A stretch of 64,000 bases of DNA. It comes from Deltaproteobacteria bacterium. GTDB taxonomy: Bacteria; Myxococcota_A; UBA9160; PR03. Positions 19,998-27,658 of this stretch are shown here, one piece after another. Each line of letters starts with the position of its first letter. Position 1 is the stretch's first letter. Under the pieces are notes generated by a model. The model worked only from the letters and a program-made list of their open reading frames with translations, was not told the origin of the DNA and ran no database searches. The stretch lies in the NCBI GenBank assembly GCA_035063765.1, contig JAPSFT010000018.1, forward strand, positions 4,593-68,592, given 5' to 3'. Made by a program: the position numbers and the translations under genes.

Positions 19998-20981
19998 TTG
20001 GCTCCCGGCGTGCGCAGGATCTCGGAGGTCGGCGAGTTCGCCCTGATCGCGCGCATCGAGCGCGCCTTGCGCCGTGCCCGCGCGGCCGGCGGCCCGTCGG
20101 TCGCGCTCGGCATCGGTGACGACGCCGCGCTGCTGCGGGTGCGGCCCGGCGAGCAGGTGGCGGTCTCGACCGATGCGCTCGTCGAGTCCGTGCACTTCCG
20201 CTGGGCGCACGAGCCGGCCGATGCGATCGGGCGTCGGGCGATGAGCGCGGCGCTCTCCGACCTGGCGGCGATGGGCGCGCGGCCGCTCGGGGTCGTGGTC
20301 GCGCTGTCCGTCCCGCCCCGGCTCGAGCTGGCGCGCGTCGACGGCCTCGTGCGCGGGCTCGCCGCCGTGGCGCGCCGCTGCGGCGCGCCGCTGGTCGGCG
20401 GCAACCTGACGCGCGGGCGCGACACGACCGTGGCCCTGACCGCGATCGGGGCCCTGCGGGCCGGACGCGCGCTGCGCCGCGCCGCGGCGCGGCCCGGCGA
20501 CCGCGTGCTCGTGACCGGAACCCTCGGCGGCGCGGCCCTCGCCCTCGCTCGGGCAGAGCGCGGCCGCCGGCGCCTCCCCGGTCGCCGGGGGCGAGGACCG
20601 GAGCCTCGCCTCGACGCCGGCCGCGCAATCGCGGCGCTGCCGGGCGCCGGCGCCTGCATCGACGTCTCCGACGGCCTGCTCGCCGACCTCGGCCACGTCC
20701 TCGAGGCCTCCCGCGTCGGGGCGACGATCGACCCGGCGCGGGTGCCGGCGCCGCGAGGCTTCGCGCGGGAGTGCGCGGCGCTCGGGCTCGATCCCCTCCG
20801 CCTCGCGCTGGCTGGCGGGGAGGACTACGAGCTCTGCTTCACCGTGCGGCCCGGGGCGCCGGGGGCTCGAGCTCTCGCTCGCCGGCTCGGCGTCCGCGTC
20901 ACCGAGATCGGCCGGATCGAAGGCCGGCGCGGGCTGCGGGGTGTGCCCGGGCACGGCCTCCCGGGCTGGACGCACTTCTAG
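19998..20981 (+). CDS. thiL: thiamine-monophosphate kinase
   Basis: [13 protein letters not shown]...[10 protein letters not shown]...[11 protein letters not shown]...DLAAMGARP...GGNLTRG; AIR-synthase-related fold. The start is TTG 19998 or GTG 20010. Confidence 0.85.
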
Positions 20982-21061
20982 CCCCGGCCCGGCGCCCCCA
21001 TCGATGCGCAGGCCCGCGGTGGCCTTTCAAGCCAACTCCGCGAGGGGCCGATACGGCTCGC

Positions 21062-22345
21062 GTGCGCGTGCCGCTCTCGTCCAAGCTCGTCGTCCGCTCG
21101 CTGCTCGTGGCGGCAGCCGTGGTGTCCTTCCCCCACCTGGTGGTGGCGGCCGGGCTCACGGTGGCCGCCTGGGTCGCGCCCTTCGTGGCGCTCGGGGTCG
21201 GCGGCGGCCTCGGCTTCTTCCTCTCCCGCGAGCTCGGCCACCGCTTCGACGCGCTGCGCGAGGTCACGGCGCGCATCCGTGCCGGCGATCTGCGTGAGGC
21301 TCCGCTGCCGCGTCCCTCGCTCTTCCCGGACGAGACCGACGACATCGCGCGCAGCGTGCAGGAGATGCTCGCCAGCCTGCGCGAGGTGGTCGAGCAGGTG
21401 CAGCGCATCGGCGAGCGCGTCTCGGCGTCGGCGGGCGGGCTCTCGCGCTCGACACGCCAGAGCCAGGCCAGCCACGAGGAGGCCTCGGCCGCCGTCGAAG
21501 GCGTGGCCAAGGGCGTCGCGGACCAGCAGGCGCTGCTCGAGGACGCGATGCGCCGGATTCGCGACATCGCCGGGACCATCGAGCTCAACGCCTCGCGCGC
21601 CCGCGAGGCCTTCGGCTTCTCCGCCGAGGCGAGCCAGAAGGCGCACGCGGGCGTCGACGTCTCGCGGCTCGCGCTCGAGAAGATGAAGACCGTGTTCCAG
21701 CGCGTCGAGCAGGCCGGCGCGCTGGTCTTCCAGCTCGAGGCGAAGACCCGCCACGTCCACCAGATCACCGAGATGATCCACAGCGTCGCGCAGCGCACGA
21801 ACCTGCTGTCGCTGAACGCCTCGATCGAGGCGGCGCGTGCGGGCGAGGCCGGCCGCGGCTTCTCGGTCGTCGCCGACGAGATCCGCAAGCTCGCCGAGAG
21901 CTCCGGCCGCAGCGCCGAGGAGATCTCGAAGCTGATGCACGAGATCCAGGCGGAGACCGCCGAGGTGGCCGACGAGATGCGCCAGTCGGGAGTCGTGATC
22001 GGCGAGGGGCGCGACGACGTGAACACGATCGCCCACTCGCTCGAGCAGATCCAGTCGGCGGTGCAGGAAGCCGCCGGGCGTGCCGAGGAGATCTTCCAGG
22101 AAGCCGACGCACAGGCGCGTGACGCCGAGCGCATGGTGGGCGGCATGGACGAGATCGCGCGGGTCGGGATCGCGAACGGCGGCGCGATCCGCGAGGTGTC
22201 GGAGGCCGCGCAGGTGCAGCTCGCAGCGATCGCGGAGACGGCCTCGTCGGCGCACGCGCTCACCGAGCTGGCCGACGAGATGCGCGGCGTGCTGCGCCGC
22301 TTCCAGACCGGCGGCGCCCCGCCGCGCGCGGAGGCCGGGACGTGA
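21062..22345 (+). CDS. methyl-accepting chemotaxis protein (two TM helices, HAMP, no sizeable periplasmic domain)
   Basis: In-frame part of ORF 20771..22345 from GTG 21062. Signalling hairpin [44 protein letters not shown]-like segment follows TM2. Confidence 0.9.
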
Positions 22346-22821
22346 GCGGGCCGAGCCCGCGGCCCCCGGCCGCCGCCGAGACGCGTCTCGTGCTCTTCGA
22401 GGTGGCGGGCGCCGCCTACGCGATCCCGATCGCCGAGGTGCTCGAGGTGATGGAGAGTGCGCCGACGGCCGGCATCCCGGGCCTGCCGCGGCGCCTGGCG
22501 GGCGTCGTGAACCATCACGGCGACGCGTTGCCGCTGGTCTCGCGCGAGGCGCTCTTCGATGTCGCGGGAGCGGCTCCGGGACCGTCGCAGCACGTGCTGG
22601 TCCTGGCCGAGCGCGACGGCGAGTCCGGAATGCTGGGCGTGCCGGTGGACCGCGTGGTCGGCCTGGCGGACGCGGCGCTCAGCCCGCACCAGGAGCCGGG
22701 GCTGGTGGTGGAGCGGCTGCCGGTTCGTGGCCGCGTGACGAGCGTGCTCGATGCCCGCCGCCTGCTCGGGCGTGCGGCGACCTTGATCGACGTGTCCACG
22801 ATGCCCGCGCACGCCCGCTGA
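22342..22821 (+). CDS. cheW: chemotaxis coupling protein CheW
   Basis: [24 protein letters not shown]... shows a CheW-like domain. GTG 22342 overlaps the MCP stop (GTGA). Confidence 0.85.
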
Positions 22822-22854
22822 GGGCGCGCGGCTGTTTCGAAGGGGAGGGTGACG

Positions 22855-23226
22855 ATGGCGAGCCGGGTCCTGGTGGCGGACGATGCGCGTTTCATGCGCC
22901 AGCTGATCCGCGAGATCATCGAGCCGGAAGGCTTCGAGGTGGTCGGTGAAGCGGCCGACGGCCGGGCGGTCGTCGAGGAGTTCTCGCGGCTGCAGCCCGA
23001 CGTGGTGACCATGGACATCGTGATGCCGAAGCGCTCGGGCATCGACGCGGTGAAGGAGATCCTGGCGCTCGATCCCAGCGCGAAGATCGTGATGGTGAGC
23101 GCGCTCGGGCAGGAGGCGCTGGTGATGGAGGCGCTCCAGGCGGGCGCCGCCGACTACGTCGTGAAGCCCTTCAAGCCCGATGCGGTGGTGACGACGCTGC
23201 GCAAGGTGATCGAGAAGGGCGAGTAG
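22855..23226 (+). CDS. cheY: response regulator CheY (receiver only)
   Basis: [12 protein letters not shown]...[16 protein letters not shown]...KIVMVSALG...DYVVKPF. ATG 22855 lies 5 nt after GGGGAGGG; GTG 22849 is the alternative. Confidence 0.92.
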
Positions 23227-23675
23227 TGGATCCGGCCAAGTACCGGGCCCTGTTCCTCGAGGAGGCGACCGAGCACCTCGCGGAGATGAGCCGGGCGCTG
23301 CTCGAGCTCGAGAAGGATCCCCGCGCACGCGAGGCGATCGACCTCGTGTTCCGCATGGTCCACTCGCTGAAGGGGATGGGCGCCTCGCTCGGCTACGAGG
23401 CCGTGAGCGAGCTCTCCCACCGGCTGGAGGACCGCCTCGGCGCGTGGCGCGCGCGGGGCGGCATCGACGACCCGGCCGGGCTGCCGCTCCTGTTCCGCGG
23501 CCTCGAGAGCCTCGAGGGCATGGTGGCGGCCGTCCGCGAGACCGGCGGCGCACCGCAGCCCGACCCCGCCCTGGTGGCAGCGCTCGACGCGCACGCGCCG
23601 GAGCCGGCCCCGGCCGGGGAGGCTCCGGCCGCCGGCGCGCTGGTGCCAAAAAAAACCCCAGCGCGCGCCCGCTAG
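23226..23675 (+). CDS. cheA: CheA histidine kinase, P1 (Hpt) domain fragment ending just after an A8 tract
   Basis: The Hpt motif [15 protein letters not shown] carries the phosphorylatable His. The frame terminates at TAG 23673-23675, 18 nt after the A8 run. The rest of CheA continues in another frame. Confidence 0.8.
23648..23655 (+). other. A8 homopolymer at the cheA frame break
   Basis: ctggtgccAAAAAAAAcccc. This is the only long A/T homopolymer I noticed in this GC-rich window. Adding one A, or a -1 slip, fuses the P1 frame to the P3-P5 frame. Confidence 0.9.
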
Positions 23676-23758
23676 CCTCCGCAGGTCGCGCGCCCGAAGC
23701 CGGGGCCGCGGAGGGCCCGGAAGCCGAAGGGGCGAGGGCGGCGCCGCCGCCGCCCTCG

Positions 23759-24919
23759 GTGCGTGTCCCCAACGAGCGCCTCGACCGCTTCCTGTCGGCG
23801 GTCGGGGAGGTGATCCTCACCACCACCCAGCTGCGGACCGCCGCCGGCGACGGCGAGCCCGGCTCCGCCGAGCCGCGTCTCGCGCGCGGCTTCGACCACA
23901 TGGACCGCGTCGTCGGCGAGCTCAAGCGCCGTGCGCTCGAGCTGCGTACCACACCGCTCCTGCGCATCATGGAGAACCTGCCGCGGCTCGCGCGCGAGGT
24001 GGCCCTGCGCGGCGGCAAGGCCGTCGAGGTGGAGCTGCGCGGCGCCGAGCTCGAGCTCGACCGCTCGATCCTCGACCGGCTCTACGACCCGCTCGTGCAC
24101 GTCGTGCGCAACGCCGTCGACCACGGGCTCGAGGCGCCCGAGGCGCGCCGGGCCGCCGGCAAGCCGGAGGTCGGGCGGCTGCTCGTCGAAGCGGTGCGCG
24201 AGAAGGACGCGATCCGCATCGCGGTCCGCGACGACGGCGCCGGCGTCGACGTGGACGCCGTCCGTGCGCGCGCGATCGCGCTCGGCGCGCTGCATCCCGA
24301 CCTCGCCGAGGACCTGCCCGCCGAGGAGGTCCTCCCGCTGGTGTTCCGCGCGGGCCTCTCGACCGCAGCGGCGGTCTCCGACATCTCCGGCCGCGGCGTC
24401 GGCATGGACGCCGTGCGTGCCACGCTCGAGTCGCTGGGCGGCGAGGTGCGGCTCGCCTCGCACCGCGGTGCCGGCACCGAGGTGTCGCTGCGGGTCCCGA
24501 TCGCGGCCGCGGTGCAGCGCGTGCTGCTGCTCGGCCTGGGCCGCGAGATGGTGGCGCTCCCGATCGCCAAGGTGGAGCGCATCGTCGAGGTCGAGGCGCA
24601 CTCGATCGAGCGCAGCGGCAGCGACGACTTCACGCTGGTGGACGGCGAGCCGGTGCTGGTGATCGACCTCGTGAGCCGGCTCGGCTGGGCCGATCCGCTC
24701 CCACCCGGCGCGCCCACCGACGCCGCCCCCGTGTTGCTGCTGCTGGCCGACGTGCGCGGCGAGCGGGTTGCGCTGCGCGTGGATCATCTGGCCGGGCAGC
24801 AGGACATCTACGTGAAGCCGCCGCCGCTCCTGCTCGGAGGGCTGCGCGCGCTGATCGGCCTGACGGTGCTCGGCGACGGGCGCCCGGTCTTCCTCGTCGA
24901 CCTGAACCAGGTGCGCTGA
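23759..24919 (+). CDS. cheA: CheA histidine kinase core (P3 dimerisation, P4 HATPase, P5 CheW-like)
   Basis: Downstream part of ORF 23444..24919: [53 protein letters not shown], then a CheW-like end. GTG 23759 is the first plausible independent start; otherwise this is the frameshifted continuation of 23226..23675. Confidence 0.8.
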
Positions 24920-24922
24920 GCA

Positions 24923-25498
24923 ATGGACGCCACCGAGGCCGAACGCATCCGCAGCGAGCTCGACCGGTTGTGCGAGCTCGCGAACGTCGGTGCGGGACAC
25001 GCCGCCGGCGCGCTCGCGCGGCTGCTCGGCTGCACGGTGTGGATGGACCCGCCGCGCGTGCGGGTGGTGCGCCGCGGCGAGGAGGCGGGGGGGGCGCTGG
25101 CGGCGAGCACCTCGGGCGTGTTCTTCGCGGTGGAGGGGGCGATCGGCGGGACCTTCGGCGTGCTCTTCCCGCAGCGCGCGCGCGAGTCGCTGCTCCTGGC
25201 GCTGCTCGGCGATCCCGACCCGCACTCGGAGGAGGCCGAGTCGGCGCTCCGCGAGGTCGGCAACATGCTCGCGTCGCACGCACTCTCGGCGGTGGCCGAC
25301 CTGATCGGCGATCGCGTGCTGCCCTCGCTGCCGGTGCTCGCGGAGGAGGGCGCCGGCGCCGTGCTCGGCGCGCGCCAGGCGCGCGGCGAGCCGGTGCGGA
25401 TCGAGTCGCGGCTGGTCGACGGCGCGGGAGGGCTGCGCTCGCTGCTGGTCTGGGTTCCCGCGCCCTTCCCGTCCGAGGCGCCTCCTCCCGACCTCTGA
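24923..25498 (+). CDS. cheC: CheC-family CheY-P phosphatase
   Basis: Both CheC active-site motifs ([DS]xxxExxN, then about 22 residues, then P) are present: DRLCELAN...WMDPP and SALREVGN...LPSLP. Confidence 0.8.
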   Translation: MDATEAERIRSELDRLCELANVGAGHAAGALARLLGCTVWMDPPRVRVVRRGEEAGGALAASTSGVFFAVEGAIGGTFGVLFPQRARESLLLALLGDPDPHSEEAESALREVGNMLASHALSAVADLIGDRVLPSLPVLAEEGAGAVLGARQARGEPVRIESRLVDGAGGLRSLLVWVPAPFPSEAPPPDL

Positions 25499-25542
25499 TA
25501 CCGTCCGCCTCCCCGGGTGCGGGGACGGCGCGGGAGGTCGGC

Positions 25543-26292
25543 TTGGACCGCGATCGGCTGCGCGCGCTGCTCGCGCAGGTGCGGAGTGGCGAGGTGGGCG
25601 CCGAGGAGGCACTCGAGCGCCTCGCGCAGATGCCCTTCGTCGAGACCGCGCACGCGCGGGTCGACACCCATCGCGCGCTCCGCCAGGGCCTGCCGGAGGT
25701 CGTCTACGGGCCGGGGAAGAGCGCGGAGCAGATCACCGAGGTCGTGCGGGTGCAGCGCGACGCCGGGCTCTCGGTGCTGGTGACGCGCGTCGAGCCCGAC
25801 ACCGCGGCACGGGTCTGCGCGCAGCTTCCGGGCGGCGAGCACGACGCGGCCGGCCGGCTGCTCTGGTACGGGCCCGCGCAGGTGCCGGTGGTCGGCAAGG
25901 GGCTCGTGCTGGTGGTGTCGGCCGGCACCTCGGACCTGCCGGTGGCGGCAGAGGCGGCCGGCGTGGCCCGGCGCTACGGCAATCGCGTCGAGCTGCTTGC
26001 GGACGTCGGCGTGGCCGGCCTGCACCGCCTGCTGGCGTCCTCGACGCTGCTCCGCCAGGCCCGGGTGCTGATCGTGGTGGCGGGCATGGAAGGGGCGCTG
26101 CCCTCGGTCGTGGGCGGGCTCGTCGACAAGCCGGTGATCGCGGTGCCGACCAGCGTCGGCTACGGCGCGTCGTTCGGGGGGATCGCGGCCCTGCTCGGCA
26201 TGCTCACGAGCTGCGCCTCGAACGTGTGCGTGGTCAACATCGACAACGGCTTCGGGGCCGCGCATGTCGCAACGCTCGTCAACCGGCTCTGA
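25543..26292 (+). CDS. larB: nickel-pincer cofactor biosynthesis protein LarB (PurE-like carboxylase/hydrolase)
   Basis: In-frame part of ORF 24970..26292. TTG 25543 lies 6 nt after GGGAGG. ARVDTHRALRQGLPEVVYGPGKS...LVVSAGTSDLPVAAEA...VVAGMEGALPSVVGGL...AVPTSVGYG. Confidence 0.8.
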   Translation: MDRDRLRALLAQVRSGEVGAEEALERLAQMPFVETAHARVDTHRALRQGLPEVVYGPGKSAEQITEVVRVQRDAGLSVLVTRVEPDTAARVCAQLPGGEHDAAGRLLWYGPAQVPVVGKGLVLVVSAGTSDLPVAAEAAGVARRYGNRVELLADVGVAGLHRLLASSTLLRQARVLIVVAGMEGALPSVVGGLVDKPVIAVPTSVGYGASFGGIAALLGMLTSCASNVCVVNIDNGFGAAHVATLVNRL

Positions 26293-27658
26293 GCGGCGCG
26301 TCCCGCCGGCGGGCGCGGCGCCCGCTGCGGGCCGCCTGCTCCACCTCGACGCGTTCTCGGGCCTCGCGGGCAACATGCTGCTCGGCGCCCTGCTCGAGCT
26401 CGGGCTGCCGCAGCGCACGCTGATCGCCGACCTCGGCGGCCTCGGCGTGCCGTTCCAGATGGTCTCGCGCCGCGTGCGGCGCGGAGCGCTGGTGGCGCGC
26501 TGGGTGGACGTGCGCGTGCCGCGCCCGCGCTCCGGCGGCCGCCGGGCGGTCGCGCGGAGCTCCGCCTCCCGCCCGCACCCGCATCCGCACGGCGCTGATC
26601 CCGCGCACGCCGGCGCTCACGAGCCCGGCTCCGTGCGCGTGCGTCCTCGCGCCGCGGCGCACGGCGGAGGCCGGCGCTACACCGAGATCCGCCGCCTGCT
26701 CGAGCGCGCGCATCTCGCGCCGGAGGTGCGCGCGCGCTCCCTCGCGGCCTTCGCCGCGCTGGCCGAGGCGGAGGCCAGGGTACACGGTATCGCTGTCGAA
26801 CAGGTCCACTTCCACGAGGTCGGCGCGGTGGACGCGATCGTCGACGTCACCGGCGCCGCGATCGGCCTCACGCGGCTCGGCGTCGGGCGGGTCACCTGTA
26901 CGCCGCTCCCGCTCGGGCACGGCACCGTCGAGACCGAGCACGGCCGGCTGCCGCTGCCGGCGCCGGCCACGCTCGAGCTCCTGCGCGGGATCCCGGTCGC
27001 GCCGGCGCACCTCGCCTGGGAGACGGTGACGCCGACCGGGGCCGCGCTCGCGCGTACGCTGGTCGACGAGTTCCGCGAGCTGCCGGCGATGACGATCGAG
27101 AGGATCGGCCTCGGCGCGGGCAACGACCGGGCCGGCGGGCTCCCCAACGTGCTGCGCGCCGTGCTCGGCCGCGGATCGGGGGCCAGCGTCGATCGGGTCG
27201 TCCTCCTCGAGTGTCACATCGACGATCTCAATCCCGAGCACTTCGAGTACCTCATGGAGCGGCTCTTCGAGGCCGGTGCGCTCGACGTCGCGCTCCAGCA
27301 CCTGCAGATGAAGAAGAACCGTCCCGGCTTCGCGGTCCGGGTGATCGCCCGGCCGGCCGAGCGGGAGGCGCTGGCCCGGGTGCTCTTCGCCGAGTCCACG
27401 ACCCTGGGGGTGCGCGTCAGCGAATCCGACCGGATCGTCCTCGCGCGGGAGGAACGCCGCGTCGTGACGCCCTTCGGCCCGATCCGGGTCAAGGTGGTGC
27501 GGGACGCCGGCGGCCGGGCCACGCCCTCGGCCGAGTACGAGGATTGCAAACGGGCAGCCCGGCGGGCCGGCGCACCGCTGCGCGAGGTGGTCCGGGCGGC
27601 CGAGGAGGCCGCGCGAGCTCCCGACACCGGGAGCCGGCCGCGTCGCCGCCAGCGTTGA
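26264..27658 (+). CDS. larC: nickel insertion protein LarC (DUF111 family)
   Basis: LLHLDAFSGLAGNMLLGALLELG at the N-terminus, a His-rich insert SRPHPHPHGADPAHAGAH, and FHEVGAVDAIVDVTG. Overlaps larB by 29 nt. Confidence 0.8.
   Translation: MSQRSSTGSERRVPPAGAAPAAGRLLHLDAFSGLAGNMLLGALLELGLPQRTLIADLGGLGVPFQMVSRRVRRGALVARWVDVRVPRPRSGGRRAVARSSASRPHPHPHGADPAHAGAHEPGSVRVRPRAAAHGGGRRYTEIRRLLERAHLAPEVRARSLAAFAALAEAEARVHGIAVEQVHFHEVGAVDAIVDVTGAAIGLTRLGVGRVTCTPLPLGHGTVETEHGRLPLPAPATLELLRGIPVAPAHLAWETVTPTGAALARTLVDEFRELPAMTIERIGLGAGNDRAGGLPNVLRAVLGRGSGASVDRVVLLECHIDDLNPEHFEYLMERLFEAGALDVALQHLQMKKNRPGFAVRVIARPAEREALARVLFAESTTLGVRVSESDRIVLAREERRVVTPFGPIRVKVVRDAGGRATPSAEYEDCKRAARRAGAPLREVVRAAEEAARAPDTGSRPRRRQR

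Follow-up and report, generated by a model that had tools for sequence, protein, structure and literature searches.

A candidate programmed -1 recoding site at a conserved A-run heptamer in the P1-P3 linker of a Myxococcota-type cheA

In a 64,000-nucleotide stretch of contig JAPSFT010000018.1 (positions 4,593 to 68,592 of the forward strand; hereafter the window, by which we mean the whole stretch analyzed), assigned to a Deltaproteobacteria bacterium, the gene for the chemotaxis histidine kinase CheA is divided between two reading frames. The P1 (Hpt) domain is encoded in one frame and the P3-P4-P5 kinase core in the -1 frame, and the frame changes at a run of eight A's in the P1-P3 linker. 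From the comparison of sequences, we consider it likely that this cheA carries a programmed -1 recoding site in its linker, operating on the ribosome at A_AAA_AAA and possibly accompanied by some transcriptional slippage. That the recoding is programmed, by either route, we judge likely to very likely, and we lean slightly toward the view that in the window it is mainly ribosomal.

The features of cheA and of the junction are, by coordinates in the window:

23226..23675, + strand: cheA frame 0, encoding P1 (Hpt), part of the linker and a short tail, 149 amino acids (Pfam Hpt)
23648..23654, + strand: slippery heptamer A_AAA_AAA, putative -1 site, inside the A8 run (X_XXY_YYZ phase, CCA AAA AAA at 23646-23654)
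23655..23660, + strand: 6-nucleotide spacer between heptamer and hairpin (sequence and fold)
23661..23693, + strand: GC-rich hairpin GCGCGCGCC...GGTCGCGCGC, candidate frameshift stimulator (predicted fold)
23654..24919, + strand: cheA -1 frame, encoding the rest of the linker, P3, P4, P5 and the stop (Pfam; ratio of nonsynonymous to synonymous substitution rates, dN/dS)

The first open reading frame (ORF) begins VDPAKYR, carries the phospho-accepting His of P1 within FRMVHSLKG, and ends at TAG 23673-23675, 17 nucleotides past the A8 run. In the -1 frame, an open stretch that runs from 23444 to the stop at 24919 overlaps the first ORF and codes for the remainder of CheA, with P3 at approximately 23756-23938, P4 (HATPase_c) at approximately 24086-24502 and P5 (CheW-like) at approximately 24521-24913. 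One additional A, or a one-base back-slip at CCA AAA AAA A, gives a joined protein of 564 amino acids in which Hpt (residues 6-105), H-kinase_dim (178-238), HATPase_c (288-426) and CheW-like (433-563) all exceed the Pfam gathering score; a P2 domain was not detected by Pfam in the joined protein. P1 with its His, P3, P4, P5 and the che-operon setting identify the product as a CheA histidine kinase. The run itself, AAAAAAAA at 23648-23655, is the sole A or T homopolymer of at least six in the 64-kb window, which is approximately 75% GC with 12% A and for which arithmetic from base composition gives approximately 0.003 such runs by chance. The initial annotation had described cheA as broken at this conspicuous A8, with P1 in frame 0, the core in the -1 frame and a normal full-length CheA restored by one extra A or a back-slip, and all of this was borne out.

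That annotation had also proposed looking for the same tract in orthologous genes, and it proved to be widespread. Frames were taken from tblastn alignments in which the Hpt and core parts served as queries against 170 loci (designated by L numbers), the close relatives among which were found mainly by a metagenome scan with a clade-specific alignment. Fifty-three distinct loci, with approximately 58-100% Hpt identity (59-100% for the core), require a -1 shift between Hpt and core, and all of them except L145 have a run of at least seven A's in the linker (A7 in 43, A8 in six including the window's own, A9 in four and A10 in two). When the junctions were anchored on the upstream frame, the heptamer A_AAA_AAA lay in the X_XXY_YYZ phase in 52 of 52 distinct junctions, whereas the positions flanking it reach a maximum base frequency of just 0.3-0.8. 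The A8, A9 and A10 variants lengthen the run by substitution and retain both the phase and the need for a -1 shift. AAA is otherwise a rare codon: of 29 Lys codons in the genes of the window it accounts for one, and of 713 in the cheA genes of the relatives for 40 (approximately 5%). The pattern indicates that the heptamer is under selection. The base after the heptamer (+8) is G in 50 of the 52 junctions, the window (A at 23655) being one of the two exceptions; this G might keep the run from exceeding seven A's, or its presence might stem from the AGN codon that is decoded once the frame has shifted. The frame-0 stop lies 4-16 codons past the run, with a sole exception at 36 codons (L157).

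With the joined protein as query, all close relatives at 75-99% identity, which formed 25 clusters drawn from Logan, JGI, ENA and NCBI, were cores of approximately 386 amino acids that lacked Hpt, and full-length CheA relatives appeared only at 63% identity or below; in the DNA of the relatives, a separate Hpt ORF of 141-149 amino acids precedes the core. In approximately 60 CheA loci that are more distantly related (<45% identity), Hpt and core share one frame and the run is absent. A neighbor-joining tree of approximately 200 columns, with poorly resolved deep nodes and no support values, placed the out-of-frame state in several deep lineages.

Two short, low-coverage contigs are irregular at the junction. 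L145 needs a -1 shift and has an interrupted run at approximately 895-905, AACAAAAA (GAA CAA AAA), in which only an A_AAA tetramer is left, and L149 has an A7 at 744-750 in another phase and needs a +1 shift instead of -1. A further locus, L004 (CAZFKD010000135.1), is labelled 'uncultured Spirochaetaceae bacterium' and has a GC content of 70% with a Myxococcota-type frameshifted cheA (A7, -1); it is probably a mis-binned contig.

A second line of evidence comes from relatives in which cheA is in frame. The linker position corresponding to the run is KKK in 39 and KK in 2 of 95 full-length relatives found by protein search, and ten in-frame loci with A10 (or A9) were available as DNA (L083-L088, L091-L093 and L096; Hpt identity to the window 58-67%). 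In eight of these ten loci the -1 frame contains a TGA two codons past the run, and the remaining two have it at 6 and 10 codons; elsewhere in these genes, a -1-frame stop is reached after a median of 77-380 codons. This TGA takes its T from the third base of four codons (GCT, GTT, ACT and CCT), although T-ending codons make up only 3.5-5.6% in those eight loci. Such a guarded stop close to the run implies actual reading of the -1 frame there; on the simplest reading this applies to the in-frame clade too, where a shift would truncate the protein and give P1 alone. In the neighbor-joining tree the in-frame A9/A10 loci fall in one clade, except L091 and L092.

Both a sequencing or assembly error and a recently inactivated pseudogene most commonly show themselves as a one-base frame break at a homopolymer. 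A near-identical strain is represented by six Logan assemblies from six sequencing runs; five of these carry A8, one carries A7 and none carries A9, with the junction otherwise identical in all six, and the metagenome contig WBZY01030861.1 (L089) has the identical A8 junction. The window reads CCA AAA AAA ACC where L103 reads GCA AAA AAA GCG, such that A8 and A7 differ by a G-to-A substitution after the run, and the equal number of codons to the stop in the two sequences shows that the A8 is not a length miscall. The break recurs in contigs of many independent metagenome and metagenome-assembled genome (MAG) projects, with names in the style of MEGAHIT (k141_) and of SPAdes (NODE_) among them. 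In pairwise comparisons of the frameshifted lineages, Hpt has a dN/dS of 0.13-0.51 and the core one of 0.12-0.43, at dS values of up to 0.8-1.0, and every full-length core alignment is one uninterrupted segment of 385-386 amino acids with no second lesion, which is the reverse of the relaxed selection and further lesions that mark a pseudogene. Both halves of cheA are under purifying selection and, by this measure, functional. We therefore regard error or recent inactivation as extremely improbable. The error that the initial annotation had offered as one of its options is contradicted by the independent assemblies and by the break common to 53 relatives, and all close relatives show the reverse of the uninterrupted cheA without an A tract that it would have expected around a decaying gene.

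The A7 assembly of the near-identical strain is L167 (Logan SRR25528446; run at 502-508), the flanks of which are unchanged and in which the frame is not restored. The A7 may be an error in the reads or in their assembly, or the population may truly vary at the tract.

Homopolymers are also the classic tracts of phase-variable contingency loci, and such a variant within one strain could be taken as a sign that DNA polymerase slippage toggles full-length CheA on and off within populations. However, the A7 of L167 leaves the frame broken and no in-frame A9 allele occurs in the six same-strain assemblies, so that frame-toggling indels among close relatives are not seen. The out-of-frame state is instead fixed across lineages separated by dS values of up to 0.8-1.0, the in-frame A10 set sits within a single clade of the poorly resolved tree while close relatives do not toggle, and run lengths differ through substitutions at the run edges rather than indels. 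Phase variation is thus highly improbable as an explanation.

The two ORFs could also represent a genuinely split CheA, with P1 and P3-P4-P5 made as separate proteins that act in trans and the core starting at GTG 23759 or by reinitiation, as the initial annotation had considered. Isolated P1 can be phosphorylated in trans by a CheA core. Functional split systems exist (PMC3591291), the GTG is indeed present at 23759 in the window, and some GTG or TTG is found before or at P3 in 41 of the 53 loci. Yet the window's GTG is replaced by GTC in L081 and ATC in L024. Across the stretch from the run to P3, read in the core frame, ATG occurs in none of the 53 loci, 12 of them have no ATG, GTG or TTG before P3, only four have a Shine-Dalgarno-like motif for the core, and a start codon within 15 nucleotides of the frame-0 stop is found in only three; gene callers pick inconsistent core starts, one of them inside P3. 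The core thus lacks the conserved start codon and ribosome-binding site that would define it as a gene of its own. Separate genes would also leave unexplained why the junction holds an A7 that never varies, stays in phase and is built from rare AAA codons, and why the in-frame sister clade keeps its -1-frame TGA. Purifying selection combined with the lack of a conserved core start makes both a pseudogene and a split gene with independent initiation unlikely, and we give the restart at GTG 23759, a codon that the relatives do not keep, little credence.

We then turn to the sequence downstream of the run. In the window, the hairpin at 23661-23693 begins 6 nucleotides past the heptamer, holds the frame-0 TAG (23673-23675) in its loop and has a predicted stability of -20.1 kcal/mol (z -2.11), which was equalled by 7 of 200 dinucleotide shuffles. 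The A7/A8 loci have a GC hairpin 5-9 nucleotides downstream of the run. We folded the 45 nucleotides beginning 3 nucleotides past the run, and for 46 A7/A8 loci the mean free energy was -23.2 kcal/mol compared with -16.4 kcal/mol in other windows of the same genes (z -1.7), with 54% of these loci at or below the 5th percentile of their own-gene windows; against dinucleotide shuffles the mean z was -1.18 with p<=0.05 in 39%. The stem is the same in the window, L103, L106, L081 and L169, where changes are confined to the loop, the inner two-pair helix and the flanks. Between subgroups, wholly different stems occupy the same position (GCGCGCGCC/GGTCGCGCGC, GCCGGC/GCCGGC, GCGCCTGCC/GGCAGGCGC and GGGCGC/GCGCCC), and in one subgroup, group C, one 5' arm pairs with two alternative 3' arms at differing distances. 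It is because the stems differ between subgroups, and because of the alternative 3' arms in group C, that we argue for the hairpin as a structure. The longer runs show no such enrichment, either in the six frameshifted A9/A10 loci (mean z 0.08, median percentile 0.45, one locus at or below the 5th percentile) or in the in-frame A9/A10 loci (mean z -0.39).

Two loci from a lower-GC lineage, L147 and L156 (62% GC, A10, -1 needed), have scarcely any downstream structure (-7.9 and -1.9 kcal/mol), as would be expected if that lineage had switched to transcriptional slippage. Two upstream stimulators were considered and rejected. The signal for a hairpin abutting the run on its upstream side, the type that stimulates transcriptional slippage, was weak (z approximately -0.8), and a Shine-Dalgarno-like stimulator was judged by eye to have inconsistent spacing, as GGGAG/GGAGG lies 3-9 nucleotides upstream in some subgroups and 27 nucleotides upstream in the window.

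The arrangement of an in-phase heptamer, a 5-9 nucleotide spacer and a hairpin is, as far as its layout goes, the classical bacterial -1 frameshift cassette, and the window has all of its elements: the heptamer in phase, a 6-nucleotide spacer followed by a hairpin, an overlapping -1 ORF that lacks conserved initiation signals of its own, and conservation of the site. For the A7/A8 loci it is the heptamer in phase and the hairpin downstream that point to the ribosomal route. The same joined protein would be produced if programmed transcriptional slippage were the main or sole route, with RNA polymerase adding an A such that A9 mRNAs encode the fused CheA. Runs longer than 7 A, such as the window's A8, are cited as prone to slippage (Antonov 2013, PMC3711429), the frameshifted A9/A10 relatives as a group do without an enriched downstream hairpin, and the A9/A10 runs of the in-frame sister clade have the lengths of efficient slippage in known cases. 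On the other hand, exactly seven A's, which is short for efficient slippage, are found in 43 of the 53 frameshifted loci, and the +8 G in 50 of 52 junctions keeps the run at seven instead of letting it lengthen. The constant X_XXY_YYZ phase is of no relevance to RNA polymerase, and a hairpin of the stimulatory type lies downstream, which is the ribosomal layout, while the upstream signal is weaker. We consider transcriptional slippage unlikely as the main or only route, although for the A9/A10 members it is the better candidate of the two routes.

Under the reading we prefer, a mainly ribosomal -1 shift, standard decoding would terminate at TAG 23673-23675 and release a free P1 (Hpt) protein of 149 amino acids. 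In a fraction of ribosomes, with tRNA-Lys in the P and A sites on AAA AAA (23649-23654), the hairpin 6 nucleotides downstream would cause a pause and a one-base back-slip on A_AAA_AAA, after which the shifted ribosomes would read the -1 frame (AAC CCC AGC...) and make the 564-amino-acid P1-linker-P3-P4-P5 kinase. RNA polymerase adding one A at the A8 would yield an identical protein and may contribute. The gene would in this way set the ratio of free P1 to full-length CheA, and free P1 might serve as a trans substrate, as a phosphate shuttle or sink, or as a means of setting CheA stoichiometry in the operon.

Several points weigh against this reading. In E. coli, A_AAA_AAA promotes shifting less strongly than A_AAA_AAG does. 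The stability of the hairpins is partly a matter of GC composition, as the mean z falls from -1.7 to -1.2 with dinucleotide shuffles, the hairpins of the close relatives L103 and L081 are individually unremarkable, and we found no compensatory changes or covariation in the stems within subgroups, where stems are invariant and loops and flanks vary. The presence of GTG or TTG in 41 of 53 loci may leave room for low-level independent initiation of the core. All members of the family are uncultured (MAGs and metagenome contigs), and the 53 distinct loci are related by descent, such that the counts overstate the number of independent observations. Finally, A8 stands at the lower edge of the lengths reported for transcriptional slippage, and at this borderline length ribosomal and transcriptional shifting are not separable for the window. 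Of the three options among which the initial annotation made no choice, slippage is the one favored by the comparative evidence, in its ribosomal form for the A7/A8 loci.

It is tempting to view the in-frame and out-of-frame genes together. On balance we favor the idea that an ancient recoding device in a clade of Myxococcota-type cheA fixes the ratio of free P1 to full-length kinase and has flipped between a form in which the shift extends the protein and one in which it truncates it. The shift-to-extend form, with A7 and a hairpin, to which the window belongs, would probably be ribosomal, and the shift-to-truncate form, with an in-frame A9/A10 and a guarded -1-frame TGA, would probably be transcriptional.

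The non-mobile bacterial genes known to rely on programmed -1 frameshifting or slippage are few, dnaX, copA, cdd and csoS2 among them. One close parallel is OrfA-OrfAB of the IS3/IS1 families, in which a short N-terminal protein is likewise the default, a -1 shift on an A-rich heptamer (A_AAA_AAG or A_AAA_AAA) with downstream structure gives the catalytic fusion, and the downstream ORF does not carry separate initiation signals; cheA differs in being a chromosomal signalling gene in a che operon, whose products would be a phosphotransfer domain and a histidine kinase. In E. coli copA, programmed -1 ribosomal frameshifting reportedly releases the N-terminal metal-binding domain, CopA(Z), as a separate chaperone (Meydan et al. 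are said to have described this in 2017). Freeing an N-terminal carrier domain by recoding between domains closely matches the in-frame A9/A10 cheA sister clade, although the copA slippery site has no A-run and the polarity is reversed in the window's clade, where the free domain would be the default product. Citrobacter rodentium tssM is said to undergo transcriptional frameshifting at a poly-A run, reportedly longer than A8. As is proposed for cheA, a chromosomal gene broken at a poly-A run is rescued by slippage and has two length variants, but in tssM this is reportedly a strain-specific 'saviour' of an indel, unlike the deeply conserved site with an in-phase heptamer and hairpin described here. 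E. coli CheA-short arises by alternative decoding (internal initiation) of one gene and lacks the P1 His. CheA-long/CheA-short thus resembles the case proposed here in having more than one CheA-derived polypeptide and differs in that the short form lacks the P1 His, rather than being P1 alone, and involves no frameshifting. CheA3/CheA4 of Rhodobacter sphaeroides are likewise more than one CheA-derived polypeptide, with P1 physically apart from the kinase core and phosphorylated in trans (PMC3591291); these are separate genes with their own starts, again with no frameshifting.

In dnaX, an A-run likewise leads to a full-length and a truncated protein, tau and gamma, by programmed -1 ribosomal frameshifting on A_AAA_AAG in E. 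coli and by transcriptional slippage at A9 in Thermus. The duality of in-frame genes, in which the shift truncates, and two-ORF genes, in which it extends, is shared with cheA: in dnaX, in-frame and two-ORF poly-A members coexist with run lengths of 7-10 A, the Chlorobi having the two-ORF form (Antonov 2013, PMC3711429). The differences are that cheA is another protein family and that the window's extended product needs the shift. A_AAA_AAA is listed among known shift sites (PMC3711429). FSscan predicts a +1 'hotspot' in E. coli cheA (PMC2790909), which differs from the window's in site and direction and is not a conserved feature. Apart from this one prediction, recoding in cheA or any other chemotaxis gene is described neither in the first 300,000 of the approximately 430,000 characters of the Atkins 2016 review, nor in Antonov 2013 including its supplements, nor in anything returned by full-text searches.

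The feature at the cheA junction is real and conserved, and we interpret it as a case of programmed -1 recoding on a poly-A run, in a gene family and with a biological output that are both new to this kind of site. If this is true, it would be the first programmed recoding event in a chemotaxis or two-component kinase of bacteria, and it would constitute a natural, tunable version of a split histidine kinase. It would also add a well-populated recoding family, with more than 50 diverged sequences, in a signalling kinase, the natural variants of which (A7 with a hairpin and A9/A10 without, out of frame and in frame) would offer material for studies of how ribosomal and transcriptional slippage come to replace each other. 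For chemotaxis it predicts a new species, free P1 made in fixed proportion to CheA, and work on split kinases suggests that separating P1 from the core could alter the input-output behavior of the pathway (PMC3591291). In MAGs such cheA genes are annotated as two genes or as pseudogenes, and each should, if recoded, be one gene.

The remaining genes of the che operon, the order of which is MCP (methyl-accepting chemotaxis protein), cheW, cheY, cheA, cheC/X, are:

20771..22345, + strand: MCP gene, first of the che operon (Pfam MCPsignal, HAMP; in the same place in L081 and L082)
22342..22821, + strand: cheW (Pfam CheW)
22849..23226, + strand: cheY (Pfam Response_reg)
24923..25498, + strand: cheC/cheX-type phosphatase gene, last che gene (Pfam CheC, CheX)

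The MCP gene and cheW overlap by 4 nucleotides (22342-22345), and the cheY stop overlaps the cheA start in TAGTG (23224-23228). These overlaps suggest translational coupling along the operon, and with such coupling the amount of CheA made for a given amount of CheY and CheW would depend on the frameshift efficiency. The cheC/X gene contains a G8 run at 25087-25094, which is in frame (GAG GCG GGG GGG GCG) and is found in the same strain's other assemblies and not in more distant relatives; given the 75% GC genome, it is probably insignificant. An Rfam scan of the whole 64-kb window gave no match, and no tRNA genes were found in it.

The operon is flanked on its 5' side by an AIR-synthase-related gene (19998-20981) and on its 3' side by larB-like (AIRC) and larC-like (Ni_insertion) genes (approximately 25500-27658). 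These neighbors have no evident functional tie to chemotaxis, and their order is kept in the relatives L081, L082, L164 and L169 (76-99% identity). Very long antisense and off-frame ORFs overlap the che genes (20899-24018 on the - strand, 23672-25612 on the - strand, and others, up to 1039 amino acids). They are high-GC artefacts that would mislead gene callers: with so much GC, a frame that codes for nothing can run on for hundreds of codons before a stop, and assigning the frame by the longest open one gave the wrong result for L001, L002, L004 and the window.

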